Shown: piece by piece, positions 1,778 through 60,936 of the stretch
Numbering within the stretch: position 1 is the stretch's first letter
How the letters are laid out: the number at the start of each line of letters is the position of its first letter
Notes under the pieces: generated by a model
The model's database searches: none
What the model was told of the DNA's origin: nothing
Seen by the model: only the letters and a program-made list of their open reading frames with translations
Made by a program: the position numbers and the translations under genes
IMG/VR virus record: IMGVR_UViG_3300031576_000464
Coordinates: 4,811 to 68,810 of that record
From: a virus
Lineage: Duplodnaviria > Caudoviricetes
Strand: one strand, 5' to 3'
Length of the DNA stretch: 64,000 nucleotides

Positions 1778-2002
1778 ATGAGTAGAAATACTAATCCATC
1801 CAATAGTATAGAATCAGAATATTATGAGAAGAACCGTAAATCTATTTGTAATAAATACGGAGGGAAATGGATTGCAATACTAGGTAAGAAAATAATCGCA
1901 AGTGACAAAGGAATAACACAACTCTATGAAAAAGTAACATCATTAAATCATAAAACACCTTTGATAATGTTCATACCTGAAACAGAGGTACAATTACTTT
2001 GA
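1778..2002 (+). CDS. DUF5678-like small protein
   Basis: KYGGKWIAI..KIIAS motif typical of this archaeal family. Confidence 0.55.
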   Translation: MSRNTNPSNSIESEYYEKNRKSICNKYGGKWIAILGKKIIASDKGITQLYEKVTSLNHKTPLIMFIPETEVQLL

Positions 2003-5682: not shown

Positions 5683-6702
5683 TTGTATAATATGGAGAAA
5701 ATGGTGATAGGTAAAGTAGAGAAACACACCACCACAACTAAGAGTAATGACATGAAGAGAAAAATAAAGTTATCTATAAATGAGGTAACAGGAACAATGA
5801 CAAAAATGATGAAAAAAGAAACCACAAAATATGAAACTGGTAGAATACCAACAATAGATATTAGCTTCGACCAATATAGACCAAGAAAGTTTGGTAAATA
5901 TATTGAGATAAATGGAGAGAAGGAATTAATTAAGGGTGCTATTGAAGAAGGATTACCACTACTCATTGAAGGAGATAAGGGTATAGGCAAGACAATGGCT
6001 ATAATAACCGTATGTGCAGAGATGGGATGTGGCATAGTTCCTTATGCTTGTTCTAGTGGAACAACAATGGGAGATATACTAGGGAGAACACAACTTCGTG
6101 GTGATAACTCTGTGTTTGAATTAGGTGTGTTACCAAAGTCAATAGAGGTGGCAAATCACTTCAAGCGTGGGATATTATATCTAGATGAGCTTAGTTCCTT
6201 AGAACCAGAAATACAAAAACTATTGAATCCACTAATAGATGATAGGAGAGAGATAGTGGTTAATGATAAGGTGTACTCAATAGACAAAGATGTAATGTAC
6301 ACAGTAATAGCATCACAGAATCCAATAGGATATCAGGGAACTAATCCACTCAATGAAGATTTAAGGAGTAGATTTGTGGGTGAAGCGTGGAGATACCCAC
6401 CATCAGTACAAATTGATAAGGTGATTGATTGGACAGATATAGACCCAAAGCATAGAAAACAACTATTGCAACTGGCAACAGATACTCTGTCATCAAGACA
6501 GAAGGGTGATGTGGAATATGTCATATCTATTAGAGATATTGCCCTATTTACCAGAGTTTATAGAATGTGGAAGAAAAAGAAAGATGAGAAATATCTTGAA
6601 AGGTCTATCCATAATGGCATATTAATAAAGTATGCAGAAATATCTGAGAGGGAACTAATTAAAACCCGTGCAGAGGAAACATTTGGAGTGAAGTTAGAAT
6701 GA
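5683..6702 (+). CDS. MoxR/CobS-like AAA+ ATPase
   Basis: Walker A GDKGIGKT, Walker B LYLDE, NP.GY.GT.PL...LRSRF; adjacent to vWA gene. Confidence 0.88.
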   Translation: MYNMEKMVIGKVEKHTTTTKSNDMKRKIKLSINEVTGTMTKMMKKETTKYETGRIPTIDISFDQYRPRKFGKYIEINGEKELIKGAIEEGLPLLIEGDKGIGKTMAIITVCAEMGCGIVPYACSSGTTMGDILGRTQLRGDNSVFELGVLPKSIEVANHFKRGILYLDELSSLEPEIQKLLNPLIDDRREIVVNDKVYSIDKDVMYTVIASQNPIGYQGTNPLNEDLRSRFVGEAWRYPPSVQIDKVIDWTDIDPKHRKQLLQLATDTLSSRQKGDVEYVISIRDIALFTRVYRMWKKKKDEKYLERSIHNGILIKYAEISERELIKTRAEETFGVKLE

Positions 6703-8471
6703 GTGGGGTAATAAAGAGAACGGATAAAGCAGAAGGAGAGGTATTAGACAGCGGTGAGGTATATATCCCCTCACTCCATATTTCTGAAGAAGATTTAATG
6801 GAAAGAACAAAAAACATATTTGAACAAGTTATAGGAGTTCCAATAATAATAACTGAAGATGATAAATGTAATTGGATTTCAATGGATGATAATGCCAAAT
6901 CACACATAATAAATATACAAAATCCACCAGAACCAGAAATACCAAAACAAACAGCACTACACCATGAATTAGGACATTACTTCTTTAGAAGTCCAGTACA
7001 AAAAGCATTTGAGATATTAGAAAGAATGGCAGTTTCCGATTTTACTGAAAAGGAACAGGTATTTGTTAAGGAAATATACAAAACAACTTACAATTTAATA
7101 GAGGATCAAAGAATAGAATCAATGCTTGGTGATATTTATGAAGGAACAAATAATAGATTTCTTGAAATGAGGGAAGCATTGGGATATAGAATATATAAAG
7201 ACATGAAAGATAAAGTTGATGACCCAATACATGCCCTACAAGCTTCAAGATTCTTCAATGAACACCTAGTTCCAGATAAATATAAAGAAGCATTAAGCAC
7301 TATGGAAGATGTTAAGCTAACTGGTAGAAATGGTGGTATAGTAATGACTACAAAGTATATAGAAAACGTACTGAAACCATACCTCAAGTCCATCACAATA
7401 CCAAATATAAAGGAACATAGAGGATGTAGCGGATGTAATGGAACAGGTAGAGGTTGTTCAAAATCACTATCAAAATTAAGTAATATGGGGAAAAGGTGTG
7501 AGAGAGATAATTCTAATTGTGACCATAGAGGTTTTGCAAATGTAAAACAGGAAAGTGATGAAGAAGGAGATATTGATGAAGGTATAGGTGATGATTTAGA
7601 AAGTGATGTAGATTCTCTTAAAAATCAGGGTCAAAAGGAGTTAGATAAGGCTAGAGAAGATTTAGAGAGAGTATCAAGAAGTTGGGAAAAAGAAAAATCA
7701 TTAACTTATGAAACAACTAATATAGAAAGACCGACAGGAGAATACAAAGTAAATGTTAATGTGGCACAGGATATGAATAGAATGTTTAAACGAATACAGA
7801 ATAAGACAAAACTAACTCTTGGACAGGATGGAGAATTTGTATCAATCCCACACGTTATACAAAGAAAGGCACAGGGATATGGTGATGTAATGATGAAAAC
7901 TAAGAGGGTGAGTGGTCTTACTGTTCTAGTATCTATTGATGCAAGTGGTAGCATGGATTCACCAGATATGATAGGAGAAGCACGTAATATGGCAGCTACA
8001 TTGTATAGTGCAATAAAGAACATTAAAGGAATTAATATGAATGTGATTGTTTGGGCAGGTGATGGCGGTAAAGATATTGGTATATCAGAAGCGGGAAGAA
8101 TAAAAGAATGTGCAGGTATAACGTGCGATGGTAGCTATTATCAAACACCCACACCAATGGCATTAGACTATTCAACAAGAAGATTAATGGAGATGAAGGG
8201 TAACAAAAAGGTCATGTTCTTCATAACAGATGGACAACCTGCCTGTGGAGGATATGATACAGAATACCTAACAGAGATGTCAAGAAAGGCAGTATTAAGA
8301 GCAGAAAGAATGGGAATTAAAATGATGGGTGTATTTGTTGGTAGTGATGAAGATAATATGAAAAGAATATTTAAGAGTAGATATGCCCGAGCACCTACAA
8401 TGAAGGAGGCAAACACTTTAATAACTAAGAAGTTTAAGGATATAGTGCTTAAGCAGGTGAAAAGACGTTAA
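6699..8471 (+). CDS. vWA-domain protein with N-terminal HEXXH domain (CobT-like partner)
   Basis: MIDAS DASGS, TPT, ITDGQP; HHELGH; acidic linker; CxxCxGxG motif. Confidence 0.85.
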   Translation: MSGVIKRTDKAEGEVLDSGEVYIPSLHISEEDLMERTKNIFEQVIGVPIIITEDDKCNWISMDDNAKSHIINIQNPPEPEIPKQTALHHELGHYFFRSPVQKAFEILERMAVSDFTEKEQVFVKEIYKTTYNLIEDQRIESMLGDIYEGTNNRFLEMREALGYRIYKDMKDKVDDPIHALQASRFFNEHLVPDKYKEALSTMEDVKLTGRNGGIVMTTKYIENVLKPYLKSITIPNIKEHRGCSGCNGTGRGCSKSLSKLSNMGKRCERDNSNCDHRGFANVKQESDEEGDIDEGIGDDLESDVDSLKNQGQKELDKAREDLERVSRSWEKEKSLTYETTNIERPTGEYKVNVNVAQDMNRMFKRIQNKTKLTLGQDGEFVSIPHVIQRKAQGYGDVMMKTKRVSGLTVLVSIDASGSMDSPDMIGEARNMAATLYSAIKNIKGINMNVIVWAGDGGKDIGISEAGRIKECAGITCDGSYYQTPTPMALDYSTRRLMEMKGNKKVMFFITDGQPACGGYDTEYLTEMSRKAVLRAERMGIKMMGVFVGSDEDNMKRIFKSRYARAPTMKEANTLITKKFKDIVLKQVKRR

Positions 8472-57672: not shown

Positions 57673-58041
57673 TTAAATCTCCTCGATGTATTTCACACTT
57701 TTGACCTCTATAAAGATTATGAATGGTTCTTTGTGCATTTTCCCATCAGATTTACGAATCCATTCGTCATATTTTGCAGGAACAATAACTTCTATTCCTA
57801 AATCTTCTGACTTGTTAGGATAAATCTCTTTTGGAGTAGATATTACTTTGGCATAGTTATCTTTTGTTCTCGTGTATTTTGGTGGTGTAGAGTCGTCCTT
57901 TAAAGCAGTATAGGCTGTGGCTTCTATATCTTTTATCTTGAATTCTGTGTTGTTTTTAACCTTATAAGTAACTGTTTTTGACGCCCCGGTAAAGAATCTA
58001 AAGTCCTTCTCTGTTGGTTCTATTATTTCCAAGTCAGTCAT
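57673..58041 (-). CDS. Ig-like small virion protein
   Basis: Beta-sandwich pattern (Y.VKN.T.F.I.DI...P..I.P.....L.I.V); coupled to portal. Confidence 0.45.
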   Translation of the reverse strand: MTDLEIIEPTEKDFRFFTGASKTVTYKVKNNTEFKIKDIEATAYTALKDDSTPPKYTRTKDNYAKVISTPKEIYPNKSEDLGIEVIVPAKYDEWIRKSDGKMHKEPFIIFIEVKSVKYIEEI

Positions 58042-60110
58042 TTCTCTTCTTCCCCATCGTCAAATTCAACTTCATATCCATCTTCATTATCCTTTATAAA
58101 GTATTTAGTTTTTGCGGGTTTGATTTTTGGGAGGGCCTTTTCCACAGGATAATATAGTCCATCCTTTACATGCCATCCATCTATTATGATATTTGACTGT
58201 TCTAAATCTAATCCATCTATTTTTGTTAGACGTTTAATCCAATATTCTTTAGTATGTCCTCTCATTGGAAGGTCTAAGGCAGTAGACTTTGCACTGGGGT
58301 TTATACCACCATCACGTTTAGCTCCTGATGCGGGGTGTCCTTGTCCTACTCCTCCTTCGAATGAGTTTCTCTTCTTCTGTGGTTGACCTTCGAAATCTGA
58401 TACCTTATCTCTATCTCCAAATTTACCAGGGCCTCTTCCTGCACCTTCCATAGGCATTTGTGAGAATGTTGGTTTCTTTGATACTTTCCACTTTCCTGTG
58501 TGTGTGCGTTCCACCTCGAATCCCATCTGTTGAAGCTGCATATGATTTTGTATATCTTGTGCTTGAATTTCTAAATCTCTTAGGTCATCAGTCTCTTCAG
58601 ATGATTTTAATTTTAAATCCCAATCATTAATATCTAGTTCTTGTGCTAATCTATCAAGAAATGTTCTCTTTAATTCCCGTTGACCCCACTCTATTGTTCT
58701 GTTTGATACTGTTAGCTCATATCCCTGGCTTGTTTGGCCTGTATTGTGCTCTCCTACGAAAATTTGTTGGAGACCATATTCAGCCATAATAATCATTCTT
58801 AACTCCTTTCTCATTTCCATAAATTCTAATTCTTTAAGAGACCCAGTAAAATCTAACCACTGTGCCATGTTACGCCCACCCTTATCTGATTCAACCATGA
58901 GTGGGTGTACCATATATGGGTCTTCTGTTGCCTTCTCTTCTAGTTTATCCCAGGCCTTTTGGAATGTTTCATAGTTCTTTGATGCTACAACCAACAGTCC
59001 TCTGGGAGGTCTCATTTTGTCAAAGTATTTCCTAATGTATTCATCCATATGTGATAGAGCCATTGCCTTACTCCATATGGCATATATTGGGCTATATCCA
59101 TATATTAATCCAGGTTTATATTTACCCGCCTTCCATATAACTTCTCCCTCTCCGTATATTACTCTTTTTGGCTGGGGAAGACCTATACTATATACAGATG
59201 ATACTTCCATTGTTGCTTTTAATGCCTTTGTATTAGTGCATATCTTTCCTCCCTCAGTAGATGAGCATACTCCAGATGTTAGTCTGGAACTTCTATGTTC
59301 AAATCTTGGACACACCCATACAGGATTACGTTTGTCATCATAGCCTATTCTTCCATCAGAGTCTGCAATTATGGCTACCTGTGGAGGGTCTATTCTTAAT
59401 ATTTCTTTAATCTGTGTAGCCTTTTTATTAATCTCTCCTGTTGAATCGTTAATACTATAGTTCTTTAATAAAAGTAGATATCCACCATCAGCAATCTCAA
59501 GGTCGCGTTCAACCATACGCATAACATCTTCAATAGTCTGATTGTTAGAGTTAACATATTCGTTTACCAAACTTAAAAGTTTTTTCCTATTCTCTGGTTT
59601 TGGTCGTATTAGTTGGTCAGAACCACATTGGTCACATTCTAGGTCATCTTCATCTTCCTCCTTCTGGTTTGTTGTTTTAGGATTTTTATCACCAAATGCC
59701 TTGTTTACAGGCTTTTGTGGCTTTGAATCCATGCCTCCATTTGGCTTTGGTTTCCCATTGGAACCTGTAGGCTCTTCACTATCCTTTTCTTCTCCCTTTA
59801 AAGGTTTGTACATGAATTCTTTATGACAGTTAGTACACTTGTATTGGAACTTTTCAGCTACATCAAAACCGTTTTTGAACATTTCGCGATTAATAGCTTC
59901 AATGGGGATTCTAAGAGCATCTATGTTATCTGCCAACTCATAAATCATTATGAGAGGATATGGAAATATTGGAAGTTTGGCACCTGTGTCTGTAGCCATA
60001 TATGGCTGCATTATTGCAGGTCTTGATGTGGTTTCAGTATAGAATTTAGCTACCTGACTGTAATTTTTAATAATGTAGCCCAAGTCCTTGAAGGCAGTAA
60101 AAACTCCCAT
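58038..60110 (-). CDS. Portal protein
   Basis: DLEIAD.GYL.L, ILRIDP..V, YGYSPI, P.RGLL, F.E.RK..R..I...YG motifs; heads the morphogenesis operon. Confidence 0.88.
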   Translation of the reverse strand: MGVFTAFKDLGYIIKNYSQVAKFYTETTSRPAIMQPYMATDTGAKLPIFPYPLIMIYELADNIDALRIPIEAINREMFKNGFDVAEKFQYKCTNCHKEFMYKPLKGEEKDSEEPTGSNGKPKPNGGMDSKPQKPVNKAFGDKNPKTTNQKEEDEDDLECDQCGSDQLIRPKPENRKKLLSLVNEYVNSNNQTIEDVMRMVERDLEIADGGYLLLLKNYSINDSTGEINKKATQIKEILRIDPPQVAIIADSDGRIGYDDKRNPVWVCPRFEHRSSRLTSGVCSSTEGGKICTNTKALKATMEVSSVYSIGLPQPKRVIYGEGEVIWKAGKYKPGLIYGYSPIYAIWSKAMALSHMDEYIRKYFDKMRPPRGLLVVASKNYETFQKAWDKLEEKATEDPYMVHPLMVESDKGGRNMAQWLDFTGSLKELEFMEMRKELRMIIMAEYGLQQIFVGEHNTGQTSQGYELTVSNRTIEWGQRELKRTFLDRLAQELDINDWDLKLKSSEETDDLRDLEIQAQDIQNHMQLQQMGFEVERTHTGKWKVSKKPTFSQMPMEGAGRGPGKFGDRDKVSDFEGQPQKKRNSFEGGVGQGHPASGAKRDGGINPSAKSTALDLPMRGHTKEYWIKRLTKIDGLDLEQSNIIIDGWHVKDGLYYPVEKALPKIKPAKTKYFIKDNEDGYEVEFDDGEEEK

Positions 60111-60526
60111 ATATAATGGTTTGGATACTACTTATTAAATATATCTTATTATATTATTTATTGTATATTTTCTTTTCCTAGGTCTTCAATGAGATTCTCC
60201 CGCATTTCATGGAGGGCTTCTAATTCTATATGAAGTTCTTCTATACGTTTGTTTATATCTAATATGTTAAGTGCTATATGTCTTGTCTCTAACGACATAC
60301 TATATTATAATAAATACCTTTATATATACCTATTGATGTGTACACAAAGCATCTCTATGTTCTGGTGAGCATTGACAAACATGTGTAGAAGATTCTTTCA
60401 CTACTGATTTTGGTTGTTCGTCTACTAATTTAACTTCTCTTCTCTTCTCTTCTATAGCCATATAACTCTATGATATTAGGCATATTTATTGTTTGTTTGT
60501 GGATGTATTATAATAATAAATAAATA

Positions 60527-60561
60527 AATAAGTAATTACTTAACACCCTCTAAAGAGCTAT
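60527..60561. repeat. 35-bp repeat copy 2 with 14-bp palindrome TAAGTAATTACTTA
   Basis: aataagtaattacttaacaccctc-taa-agagctat. Confidence 0.85.
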
Positions 60562-60578
60562 GAGTTAATTTAATATAA

Positions 60579-60586
60579 TTTATATA
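60579..60586 (+). promoter_or_regulatory. TATA box upstream of the tRNA-like RNA
   Basis: TTTATATA ending 21 nt before the predicted 5' end. Confidence 0.5.
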
Positions 60587-60606
60587 TGGTATGATATATG
60601 TTATAG

Positions 60607-60731
60607 TGTACTGTAGTGTGAGCTCAAGCACGCCTGCAGGTAGCTAATAGACATCAAGCCTAAGTTTTAAGGTTATGATTGGTCATCATAACAAAGCCGA
60701 GGAAGACCGGAGTGGCGACCCGGCGGTACAT
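60607..60731 (+). ncRNA. tRNA-like structured RNA candidate
   Basis: 7-bp acceptor stem TGTACTG/CGGTACA, D arm GTGT/GCAC, T-like arm CCGG/CCGG, anticodon arm replaced by about 65 nt with hairpins; GC-rich island in AT-rich non-coding DNA. Confidence 0.6.
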
Positions 60732-60735
60732 AATA

Positions 60736-60936
60736 TTAATCTCCACCCACTCTATAGTTTGGCTCTTTCTTTAATACCTTTTTTTGTAATTCTCGTCCTA
60801 TCTTATCAATCACCTGGCGGTGGCACTTACACCTACAACCTGCATGGGTCATAGTAAATGTGCAGAATTCAGTATGTTCTATATGAGGTTTTATTATTGG
60901 TGTTTTTGCTTCAGCCATGTTCTCTGTCATGAACAT
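60736..60936 (-). CDS. Small Cys/His protein
   Basis: HAGCRCKCH. Confidence 0.45.
   Translation of the reverse strand: MFMTENMAEAKTPIIKPHIEHTEFCTFTMTHAGCRCKCHRQVIDKIGRELQKKVLKKEPNYRVGGD

Follow-up and report, generated by a model that had tools for sequence, protein, structure and literature searches.

A predicted RNA family with the fold of a tRNA body and without a decoding arm in ammonia-oxidising archaea and their tailed viruses

Non-decoding RNAs with the shape of a tRNA have been described in several systems, with the primary work on the t-elements of archaea reportedly being that of Holzle et al. in 2008 and 2012. In Haloferax volcanii, t-elements are tRNA-like structures, located for example upstream of the 5S rRNA, which serve as substrates of RNase P and tRNase Z (PMC4326828; PMC3296008). 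They have the archaeal origin, the tRNA shape and the lack of decoding in common with the RNA family reported here, and their cutting by tRNA end-processing enzymes can set the 5′ end of the next RNA; most members of the present family likewise closely precede another gene. What sets the present family apart is a promoter of its own, a core that does not vary, a 3-bp helix between two loops, copies in viruses and members without a downstream gene, and the likeness between the two is one of fold. In eukaryotes, mascRNA and menRNA are non-decoding cloverleaves of about 60 nt with a reduced and poorly conserved anticodon arm, which RNase P and RNase Z free from long precursors and whose function is largely unknown. 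These tRNA-like small RNAs are cut from MALAT1 and NEAT1, respectively (PMC9777231). The present family, in contrast, consists of independent archaeal and viral genes with a T loop unlike that of tRNA. Equally, the bacterial and phage Y RNA YrlA and the tRNA-like domain of tmRNA stand for non-decoding tRNA mimicry that is also carried by viruses; unlike the present family, both retain a canonical T loop and are parts of larger RNAs with Ro-binding or mRNA-like modules. The pRNA of phi29, finally, resembles the present family as a virus-encoded small RNA with two complementary loops, and here the gene adjoins the portal operon.

Comparison of homologous sequences shows a conserved, promoter-preceded and strand-specific structured RNA family which possesses the fold of a tRNA body and lacks a decoding arm. 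The family is common to ammonia-oxidising archaea (Nitrosopumilaceae and relatives), which are hosts of considerable ecological weight, and to their tailed viruses. It is not catalogued in Rfam, and in the literature on tRNA-like or structured RNA of Nitrosopumilus and Thaumarchaeota no description of it was found. The viral copy at the centre of this analysis is a member with an expanded third arm.

The viral locus and its RNA

The window, that is the whole stretch of DNA analysed, covers 64,000 nt (35% G+C) of the 68.8-kb IMG/VR record IMGVR_UViG_3300031576_000464. Window DNA is present in two DNA runs only, both from one cave-metagenome sample, and no RNA run is listed. The gene content, including a portal protein, TerL, a tail tube protein, an MCM helicase, RadA, a Cas4-like nuclease and an AAA_5 plus VWA pair (CobS/CobT-like), marks an archaeal tailed virus. 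In GenBank, the closest portal proteins share about 25% identity with that of the window and belong to tailed viruses of haloarchaea, HCTV-1 and HVTV-1 among them; blastn to GenBank phages gave no match. Neither an RNA ligase nor a CCA-adding enzyme nor RtcB is present among the 28 viral ORFs scanned.

Several genes of the virus deserve a remark in their own right. The AAA_5 ATPase (339 aa) is followed by the VWA-domain protein (590 aa), an arrangement resembling the CobS/CobT-like pair known from archaeal and bacterial tailed viruses (PMC8651126). A protein of 1111 aa with three Laminin_G_3 lectin-like domains matches the fold of the receptor-binding N-domain of clostridial neurotoxins and is probably a tail fibre or adhesin. 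The portal protein displays CxxC pairs (CTNCHKEF...CDQCGSD, then CPRFEH...) inserted in its core and a Gly/Pro-rich tail.

The RNA is encoded on the plus strand within a long block of minus-strand genes and is flanked by an ORF of 66 aa, which ends 5 nt past it, and by two small ORFs preceding the portal gene. Only one copy is found in the entire virus record. Two overlapping Cys/His-rich microprotein ORFs (66 aa and 53 aa) converge on the RNA, neither of them with a homologue in any fetched locus; the coding strand of this segment is uncertain, because the opposite strand also contains a Cys/His-rich ORF. On its 5′ side, the RNA gene is situated within a very compact divergent promoter region, as in equivalent loci, and in relatives a divergent leaderless-looking ORF begins about 31–50 nt from the RNA 5′ end, leaving room for two back-to-back TATA boxes. 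The coordinates of all features are collected in Table 1.

Table 1. Parts of the RNA and other features of the viral window (positions and strand of the window; R1 and R2 are covariance models).
Feature	Position	Strand	Remark
Whole RNA, cloverleaf four-way junction, 125 nt	60607..60731	+	R1 128 bits; R2 51 bits, E ~1e-14, model 1-66
Discriminator-like U, last base of whole RNA	60731	+	sequence
Acceptor-like stem	60607-13 with 60724-30	+	six Watson-Crick pairs and U60612.G60725
Connector UA (U8-A9)	60614-15	+	precedes D-like arm
D-like arm	60616..60631	+	stem GUGU 60616-19 / GCAC 60628-31, loop GAGCUCAA 60620-27
Kissing helix, D-loop half (G, C, U)	60622..60624	+	pairs with T-loop half 60714-16
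Arm 3, 70 nt	60633..60702	+	base CCU 60633-35 with AGG 60700-02
Perfect 8-bp hairpin inside arm 3	60672-79 with 60685-92	+	
Variable-region-like connector AAGA	60703..60706	+	alignment columns 167-170; family consensus A-G-G-N
T-like arm	60707..60723	+	stem CCGG 60707-10 / CCGG 60720-23, 9-nt loop AGUGGCGAC 60711-19
TATA box TTTATATA	60579..60586	+	-28..-21 from RNA 5′ end
T7 run, possible transcription stop	60779..60785	+	~50 nt 3′ of RNA; sequence
Compact divergent promoter region	60462-60606		
Portal protein	58038-60110	-	
Microprotein ORF, 66 aa	60736-60936	-	
Microprotein ORF, 53 aa	60927-61088	-	
AAA_5 ATPase, then VWA-domain protein	5683-8471	+	
Laminin_G_3 protein, 1111 aa	35027-38362	-	

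In the first-pass annotation, which was made from the window sequence, the element had been drawn as a cloverleaf with a TATA box, the UA and AAGA connectors, an inner T-like loop GUGGCGA, a perfect 8-bp hairpin in the third arm and no encoded CCA. All of these pairings and motifs were recovered, and no support was found for the second hairpin thought possible in arm 3. The fifth position of the T stem is a mismatch in the window copy (A60711 x C60719), and the base of arm 3 may alternatively be formed with a second GCCU at 60658-61. No CCA is encoded by any other family member either. Considered as a single sequence, the fold of the window element is not significant (MFE z-score of -1.27 on the plus strand), and the arm-3 insert has a z-score of -0.12; the interior of this arm shows neither a homologue nor a fold signal. 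The cloverleaf of the single window sequence is consequently no more than expected by chance and it is the homologues which lift it above chance.

Homologues in viruses and in host chromosomes

Via the portal protein, 80 related viral contigs were collected. An intergenic blastn against these 80 loci gave as sole match a 27-nt seed in contig L079, which became the key lead to the RNA family: the L079 site folds into the cloverleaf of the window, from which it departs by compensatory changes, three of them in the terminal stem and a further one in the T-like stem. The covariance model R1, built from four copies, matches 65 loci, and R2, built from 46 copies, three more, so that about 68 of the 80 portal-related viral contigs carry the RNA; R2 recovers exactly the extent of the window element given in Table 1. 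With few exceptions, viral copies lie on the strand opposite to that of the portal gene and 150–500 nt upstream of it, and most are 63–81 nt long. In one relative, L080, the RNA (1898-1974, plus strand) is inverted, being on the strand of the portal gene about 110 nt upstream of it. Contig L086 and bacterial contigs, which had been matched by DNA patterns, scored weakly or not at all with the model and were discarded as chance matches.

The RNA had initially been taken for a viral ncRNA. It is not specific to viruses; RNAs with near-identical cores reside in host chromosomes beside core genes. A scan with the D-arm pattern over one genome per prokaryote species matched many contigs of Nitrosopumilus, Nitrosarchaeum, Nitrosotenuis, Nitrosotalea, Nitrosopelagicus and other Nitrososphaeria, with R2 scores of host contigs of 47–71 bits. 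The neighbours of the host copies include topoisomerase IB (TopoIB), a Trm112-methyltransferase, FEN1, TFB, a thermosome fragment and the rRNA operon; the copies sit among chromosomal genes and not in proviruses, save for L163 with its viral-looking flank. Five genomes searched as a whole contain one or two copies each, mostly a single one. Among Nitrosopumilaceae, the pattern occurs in 26 of 101 species genomes (a count which takes in one unpublished genome, G169) versus 1 of 101 for the reversed control, and at the level of the class at least 23 of 121 genomes are matched by the model with part of the candidates scored. As only about a quarter of the Nitrosopumilaceae species genomes carry the motif, carriage is patchy and not that of a housekeeping RNA. 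Host copies are highly conserved across genera and in part occupy syntenic core positions. The RNA provides a sequence marker by which viral contigs from marine, cave and soil sources, all uncultivated, are linked to Nitrosopumilaceae as hosts.

Covariation, promoter and comparison with tRNA

Alignment A5 comprises 93 members (47 viral and 46 host copies). Throughout this alignment, 93.3% of pair cells form standard pairs versus 23–45% in slid controls, and compensatory changes on both sides occur in 16 of 22 pairs, values reached in 0 of 500 shuffles; the refuting outcome named along with the original drawing, homologues without covariation, has thus clearly not occurred. Pairs that covary are distributed over the terminal stem (7/7), the base of arm 3 (3/3) and the T stem (4/5). 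Every helix of the drawing is kept in the 93 relatives with compensatory changes, bar the inner arm 3, with the D-like stem being invariant, without covariation, except that G10 has either U or C as its partner at position 25. Since G.U pairs are strand-specific and would turn into A-C mismatches on the other strand, the invariant U13.G22 and the G10.U25 pair present in 53 of 93 members fix the transcribed strand.

The nucleotides close to the junction hardly vary at all. Invariant in the 93 members are U8, the stretches G10, U11, G12, U13, G14, A15, G16 and G22, C23, A24, the G at alignment column 169 (G46) and, in the T-like loop, U3, C6 and A8. The consensus of the D loop reads G-A-G-Y-N-U and that of the T loop N-K-U-N-R-C-K-A-N. 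Mutual information revealed in addition a tertiary loop-loop kissing helix of 3 bp, in which G16-Y17-N18 of the D loop pair antiparallel with N4-R5-C6 of the T loop (columns 16-18 with 181-183; 97.8% paired; types UA/CG/AU/UG/GU); the window copy contributes G60622-C60716, C60623-G60715 and U60624.G60714. Column 168, the second connector base at position 45, covaries with position 25, as in the 10-25-45 triple of tRNA.

In the junction, U8-R9 joins a 7-bp stem to a 4-bp D stem, a single nucleotide separates the latter from arm 3, and 4 nt lead from arm 3 to a 4-5-bp T stem. Connector lengths of 2/1/4/0 and a stack of 7+5 bp match those of a class I tRNA, so that the fold closely reproduces the tRNA body, albeit with an elbow built differently. 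With the canonical tRNA (RF00005) the family has in common the 7-bp acceptor stem, U8 plus one purine, the 4-bp D stem, the 4-nt variable region, the 4-5-bp T stem, a contact between D loop and T loop and the 10-25-45-like covariation. It lacks, however, the anticodon stem-loop, G18-G19 and T-Psi-C-R-A, and its predicted elbow, formed by three Watson-Crick pairs between the loops, would represent a new solution to the tRNA elbow.

Arm 3 measures 10 nt (3 bp plus tetraloop) in 37 of 93 members and reaches 87 nt in L085, with the 70-nt arm of the window being the second largest of the 93. The description of the element as a promoter-preceded, tRNA-shaped and non-decoding RNA agrees well with its relatives, most of which have a 3-bp stub with a tetraloop for an anticodon arm. 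The notion of an anticodon arm that has been replaced, on the other hand, had to be abandoned: the family never has such an arm, and the window copy represents an expansion of a variable one. In some arms of intermediate length, an AGUA/GAA arrangement is by eye reminiscent of a loop E motif. A k-turn in the D arm, and a word-level resemblance to the SRP Alu domain (CCAGCUAC, GGGAGGCUG), were considered and dropped, with no model hit and no consistent motif in either case.

Among viral copies, TATA-like 8-mers concentrate at -31..-27 (8-mer start) in 45 different upstream regions, and host copies have CTATAAG or CTTTTAAT at the same distance. Judged by archaeal promoter spacing, we infer that transcription starts at about 60607, the first stem base, which would leave nothing for RNase P to remove. 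A T run of at least five within 60 nt downstream occurs in only 16 of 93 members.

Tools for the detection of tRNAs do not see the RNA. ARAGORN found nothing at the site in default, intron, lowered-threshold, -mt and tmRNA (-m) modes, nor did it hit other viral or host copies, and its seven low-threshold calls elsewhere in the window were spurious, with 'introns' of 48–2230 nt. Rfam, in gathering and E-value modes (with E values of at most 10 for the window element and at most 1 for relatives), offers no family for the element in the window, in ten viral loci or in five host loci; a tmRNA or YrlA is accordingly not indicated by ARAGORN -m or by Rfam. The Rfam tRNA model is silent on the RNA and yet, in host loci, picks up the genuine tRNAs with introns that lie a few hundred bases from it. 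As to the features of a tRNA, an anticodon stem of 5 bp capped by a 7-nt loop containing U33 and the anticodon is missing, given the tetraloop arms of relatives and a 70-nt arm without such a loop in the window; equally, the family consensus includes neither G18-G19 nor T54-Psi55-C56-R57-A58 in a 7-nt T loop, and a bulge-helix-bulge motif was not evident by eye in arm 3 of the window. Given an arm 3 that usually consists of just 3 bp and a tetraloop, the RNA has no anticodon and is not a tRNA. The fact that tRNA finders and Rfam both miss it makes the RNA a cautionary case for annotation.

Candidate roles of the RNA

By analogy with the described systems, we tentatively favour a non-decoding mimic of the tRNA body which is handled by tRNA end-processing enzymes to give a stable trans-acting RNA; the steps on enzymes, ends and partners we infer. 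According to this proposal, the element would be a small RNA gene in its own right, preceded by an archaeal TATA promoter, in which arm 3 is a dispensable stub, enlarged to 70 nt in the window virus, and its RNA would be non-decoding and act by mimicking the body of a tRNA. The acceptor/T minihelix and the elbow are features recognised by certain host enzymes, such as tRNase Z, the CCA-adding enzyme and possibly RNase P, which might trim the RNA, and the trimmed and perhaps CCA-tailed product might persist as a stable small RNA acting in trans with some partner. In most relatives, the same cut might also set the 5′ end of the small gene 30–55 nt downstream, a part played for 5S rRNA by the t-elements of Haloferax. 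The virus's own diverged copy might then serve to use or saturate the same host pathway, and an RNA encoded by hosts and many tailed viruses provides a testable handle on the use of host RNA machinery by viruses. Among the functions initially suggested for the element, that of a processing substrate would be the most plausible.

Several observations do not sit easily with this proposal, among them the transcription start placed at the first stem base and the carriage by only about a quarter of the Nitrosopumilaceae species genomes. Recognition by tRNA enzymes would not be assured, because the T-like loop is without T54-Psi55-C56-R57-A58 and the D-like loop without G18-G19. Furthermore, the invariant core (U8, G10-G16, G22-A24, G46) is more typical of a specific pocket for a ligand or a protein than of generic mimicry.

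The main rival to tRNA-body mimicry is a cis-acting 5′ leader of the following small gene, which might be an aptamer of the riboswitch type, a leader bound by a protein or purely a signal for processing. The four-way-junction core would be the pocket for a ligand or protein and the acceptor-like stem the switching helix P1. We consider such a role rather unlikely, although the gene order speaks for it and against mimicry in trans: in 43 of 47 viral copies a same-strand small ORF starts 16–70 nt downstream, most commonly at +31/32, and about half of the host copies (23 of 44) have a same-strand ORF close downstream. The viral ORF mostly encodes a 58-64-aa MVELE-type protein (MVELExxDY...WF...FWKLxFLxEDK), which is conserved and whose gene, for instance L058:1151-1339 (-), has equivalents in about 29 viral loci and in most relatives starts 31–32 nt after the RNA. 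Among host loci, at least 20 of Nitrosopumilaceae are such that the RNA lies directly before a conserved microprotein operon (L101:5450-5848 (-); L093:767-1131 (+)) for a Lys-rich protein of 36–37 aa, a C2H2-like protein of 34–42 aa and a third small Cys-containing protein. The anatomy of the RNA is likewise in line with a leader: an invariant junction, a variable P1, a variable arm and a loop-loop lock are the usual architecture of riboswitch aptamers, and in the family the junction-proximal nucleotides are invariant while the outer P1 pairs vary, one arm varies in length and a loop-loop helix is present.

Against a leader and for independence from a downstream gene speak the window and the nearest relatives of its copy, L005, L006 and L085, all of which keep the fold with no same-strand ORF downstream of the RNA; in the window, the adjacent ORF even converges on it. 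The downstream genes of hosts and viruses are unrelated, with no viral homologue of the host microprotein operon and no tblastn match of the MVELE-type protein in the window at E<1e-3. Other host neighbours of the RNA are inconsistent and do not include a constant protein partner. Equally, the spacers contain a TATA-like box that is placed, at about -25 relative to the ATG, where a separate leaderless promoter would have it, and the many viral cases come from a single clade, that of the MVELE genes, and hence are not independent.

A narrower variant with an emphasis on the pocket, for which we see still less likelihood than for a leader in general, would have the core, locked by the loop-loop helix, bind a metabolite or a small protein as a new archaeal riboregulator or riboswitch class for microprotein genes of ammonia-oxidising archaea. 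Should it be true, viruses would have copied the RNA to read or override a host signal, with arm 3 as a site of free expansion.

Another possibility, improbable in our estimation, is that of a decoy or regulator against tRNA-directed defence, toxins or tRNA-binding host factors, which would soak up binders of the acceptor stem and elbow. The patchy host carriage established above would befit an accessory, conflict-related gene, and carriage by viruses as well as host neighbourhoods that are variable and rich in small ORFs point in the same direction. No defence or toxin gene was seen beside host or viral copies, though, and the conservation of host copies across genera at partly syntenic core positions does not suggest a gene involved in conflict. 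The more specific proposal of a decoy for anticodon nucleases is unlikely because an RNA without an anticodon loop cannot mimic their target.

Packaging has equally been considered, with an RNA like the phi29 pRNA, in which pairing of the D-like loop of one molecule with the T-like loop of another would build a ring on the portal. The proximity to the portal noticed in the first-pass annotation is borne out, about 68 of 80 related contigs having the RNA beside the portal operon, and the covariation fits intramolecular and intermolecular loop pairing alike. The role in packaging deduced from this proximity is nevertheless weakened by the presence of the same RNA in host chromosomes, far from virion genes, and appears very doubtful: L085 carries the RNA with no portal homologue in the 13 kb fetched, the virus has an ordinary TerL terminase, the pRNA model of Rfam gives no match and, given the tRNA-like junction, the loops most simply pair within one molecule.

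A chance cloverleaf, or a DNA-level signal such as an origin, att or cos site, for which the non-significant single-sequence fold and the location within a divergent promoter region might be quoted, is hardly credible and already contradicted by compensatory changes in four helices and the tertiary helix, by strand-specific G.U pairs and by a promoter conserved at a fixed distance. Last, an ordinary intron-containing or otherwise disrupted tRNA gene might be suspected from the cloverleaf geometry, and thaumarchaeal tRNA genes often have introns that are missed by ARAGORN; this has next to no probability and is already contradicted by the short arms of 37 of 93 members, which leave no room for an intron and from which no spliced product could have a 7-nt anticodon loop, by the lack of G18-G19 and of a T-Psi-C loop, and by the outcome of the proposed ARAGORN and Rfam check, in which neither the intron search of the former nor the tRNA model of the latter scored the RNA as such a gene. 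True intron-containing host tRNA genes of 96–115 nt are situated at L101:5250-5364 (+), L137:4775-4889 (+) and L092:5978-6073 (+), where they are missed by ARAGORN in default mode and found by Rfam.
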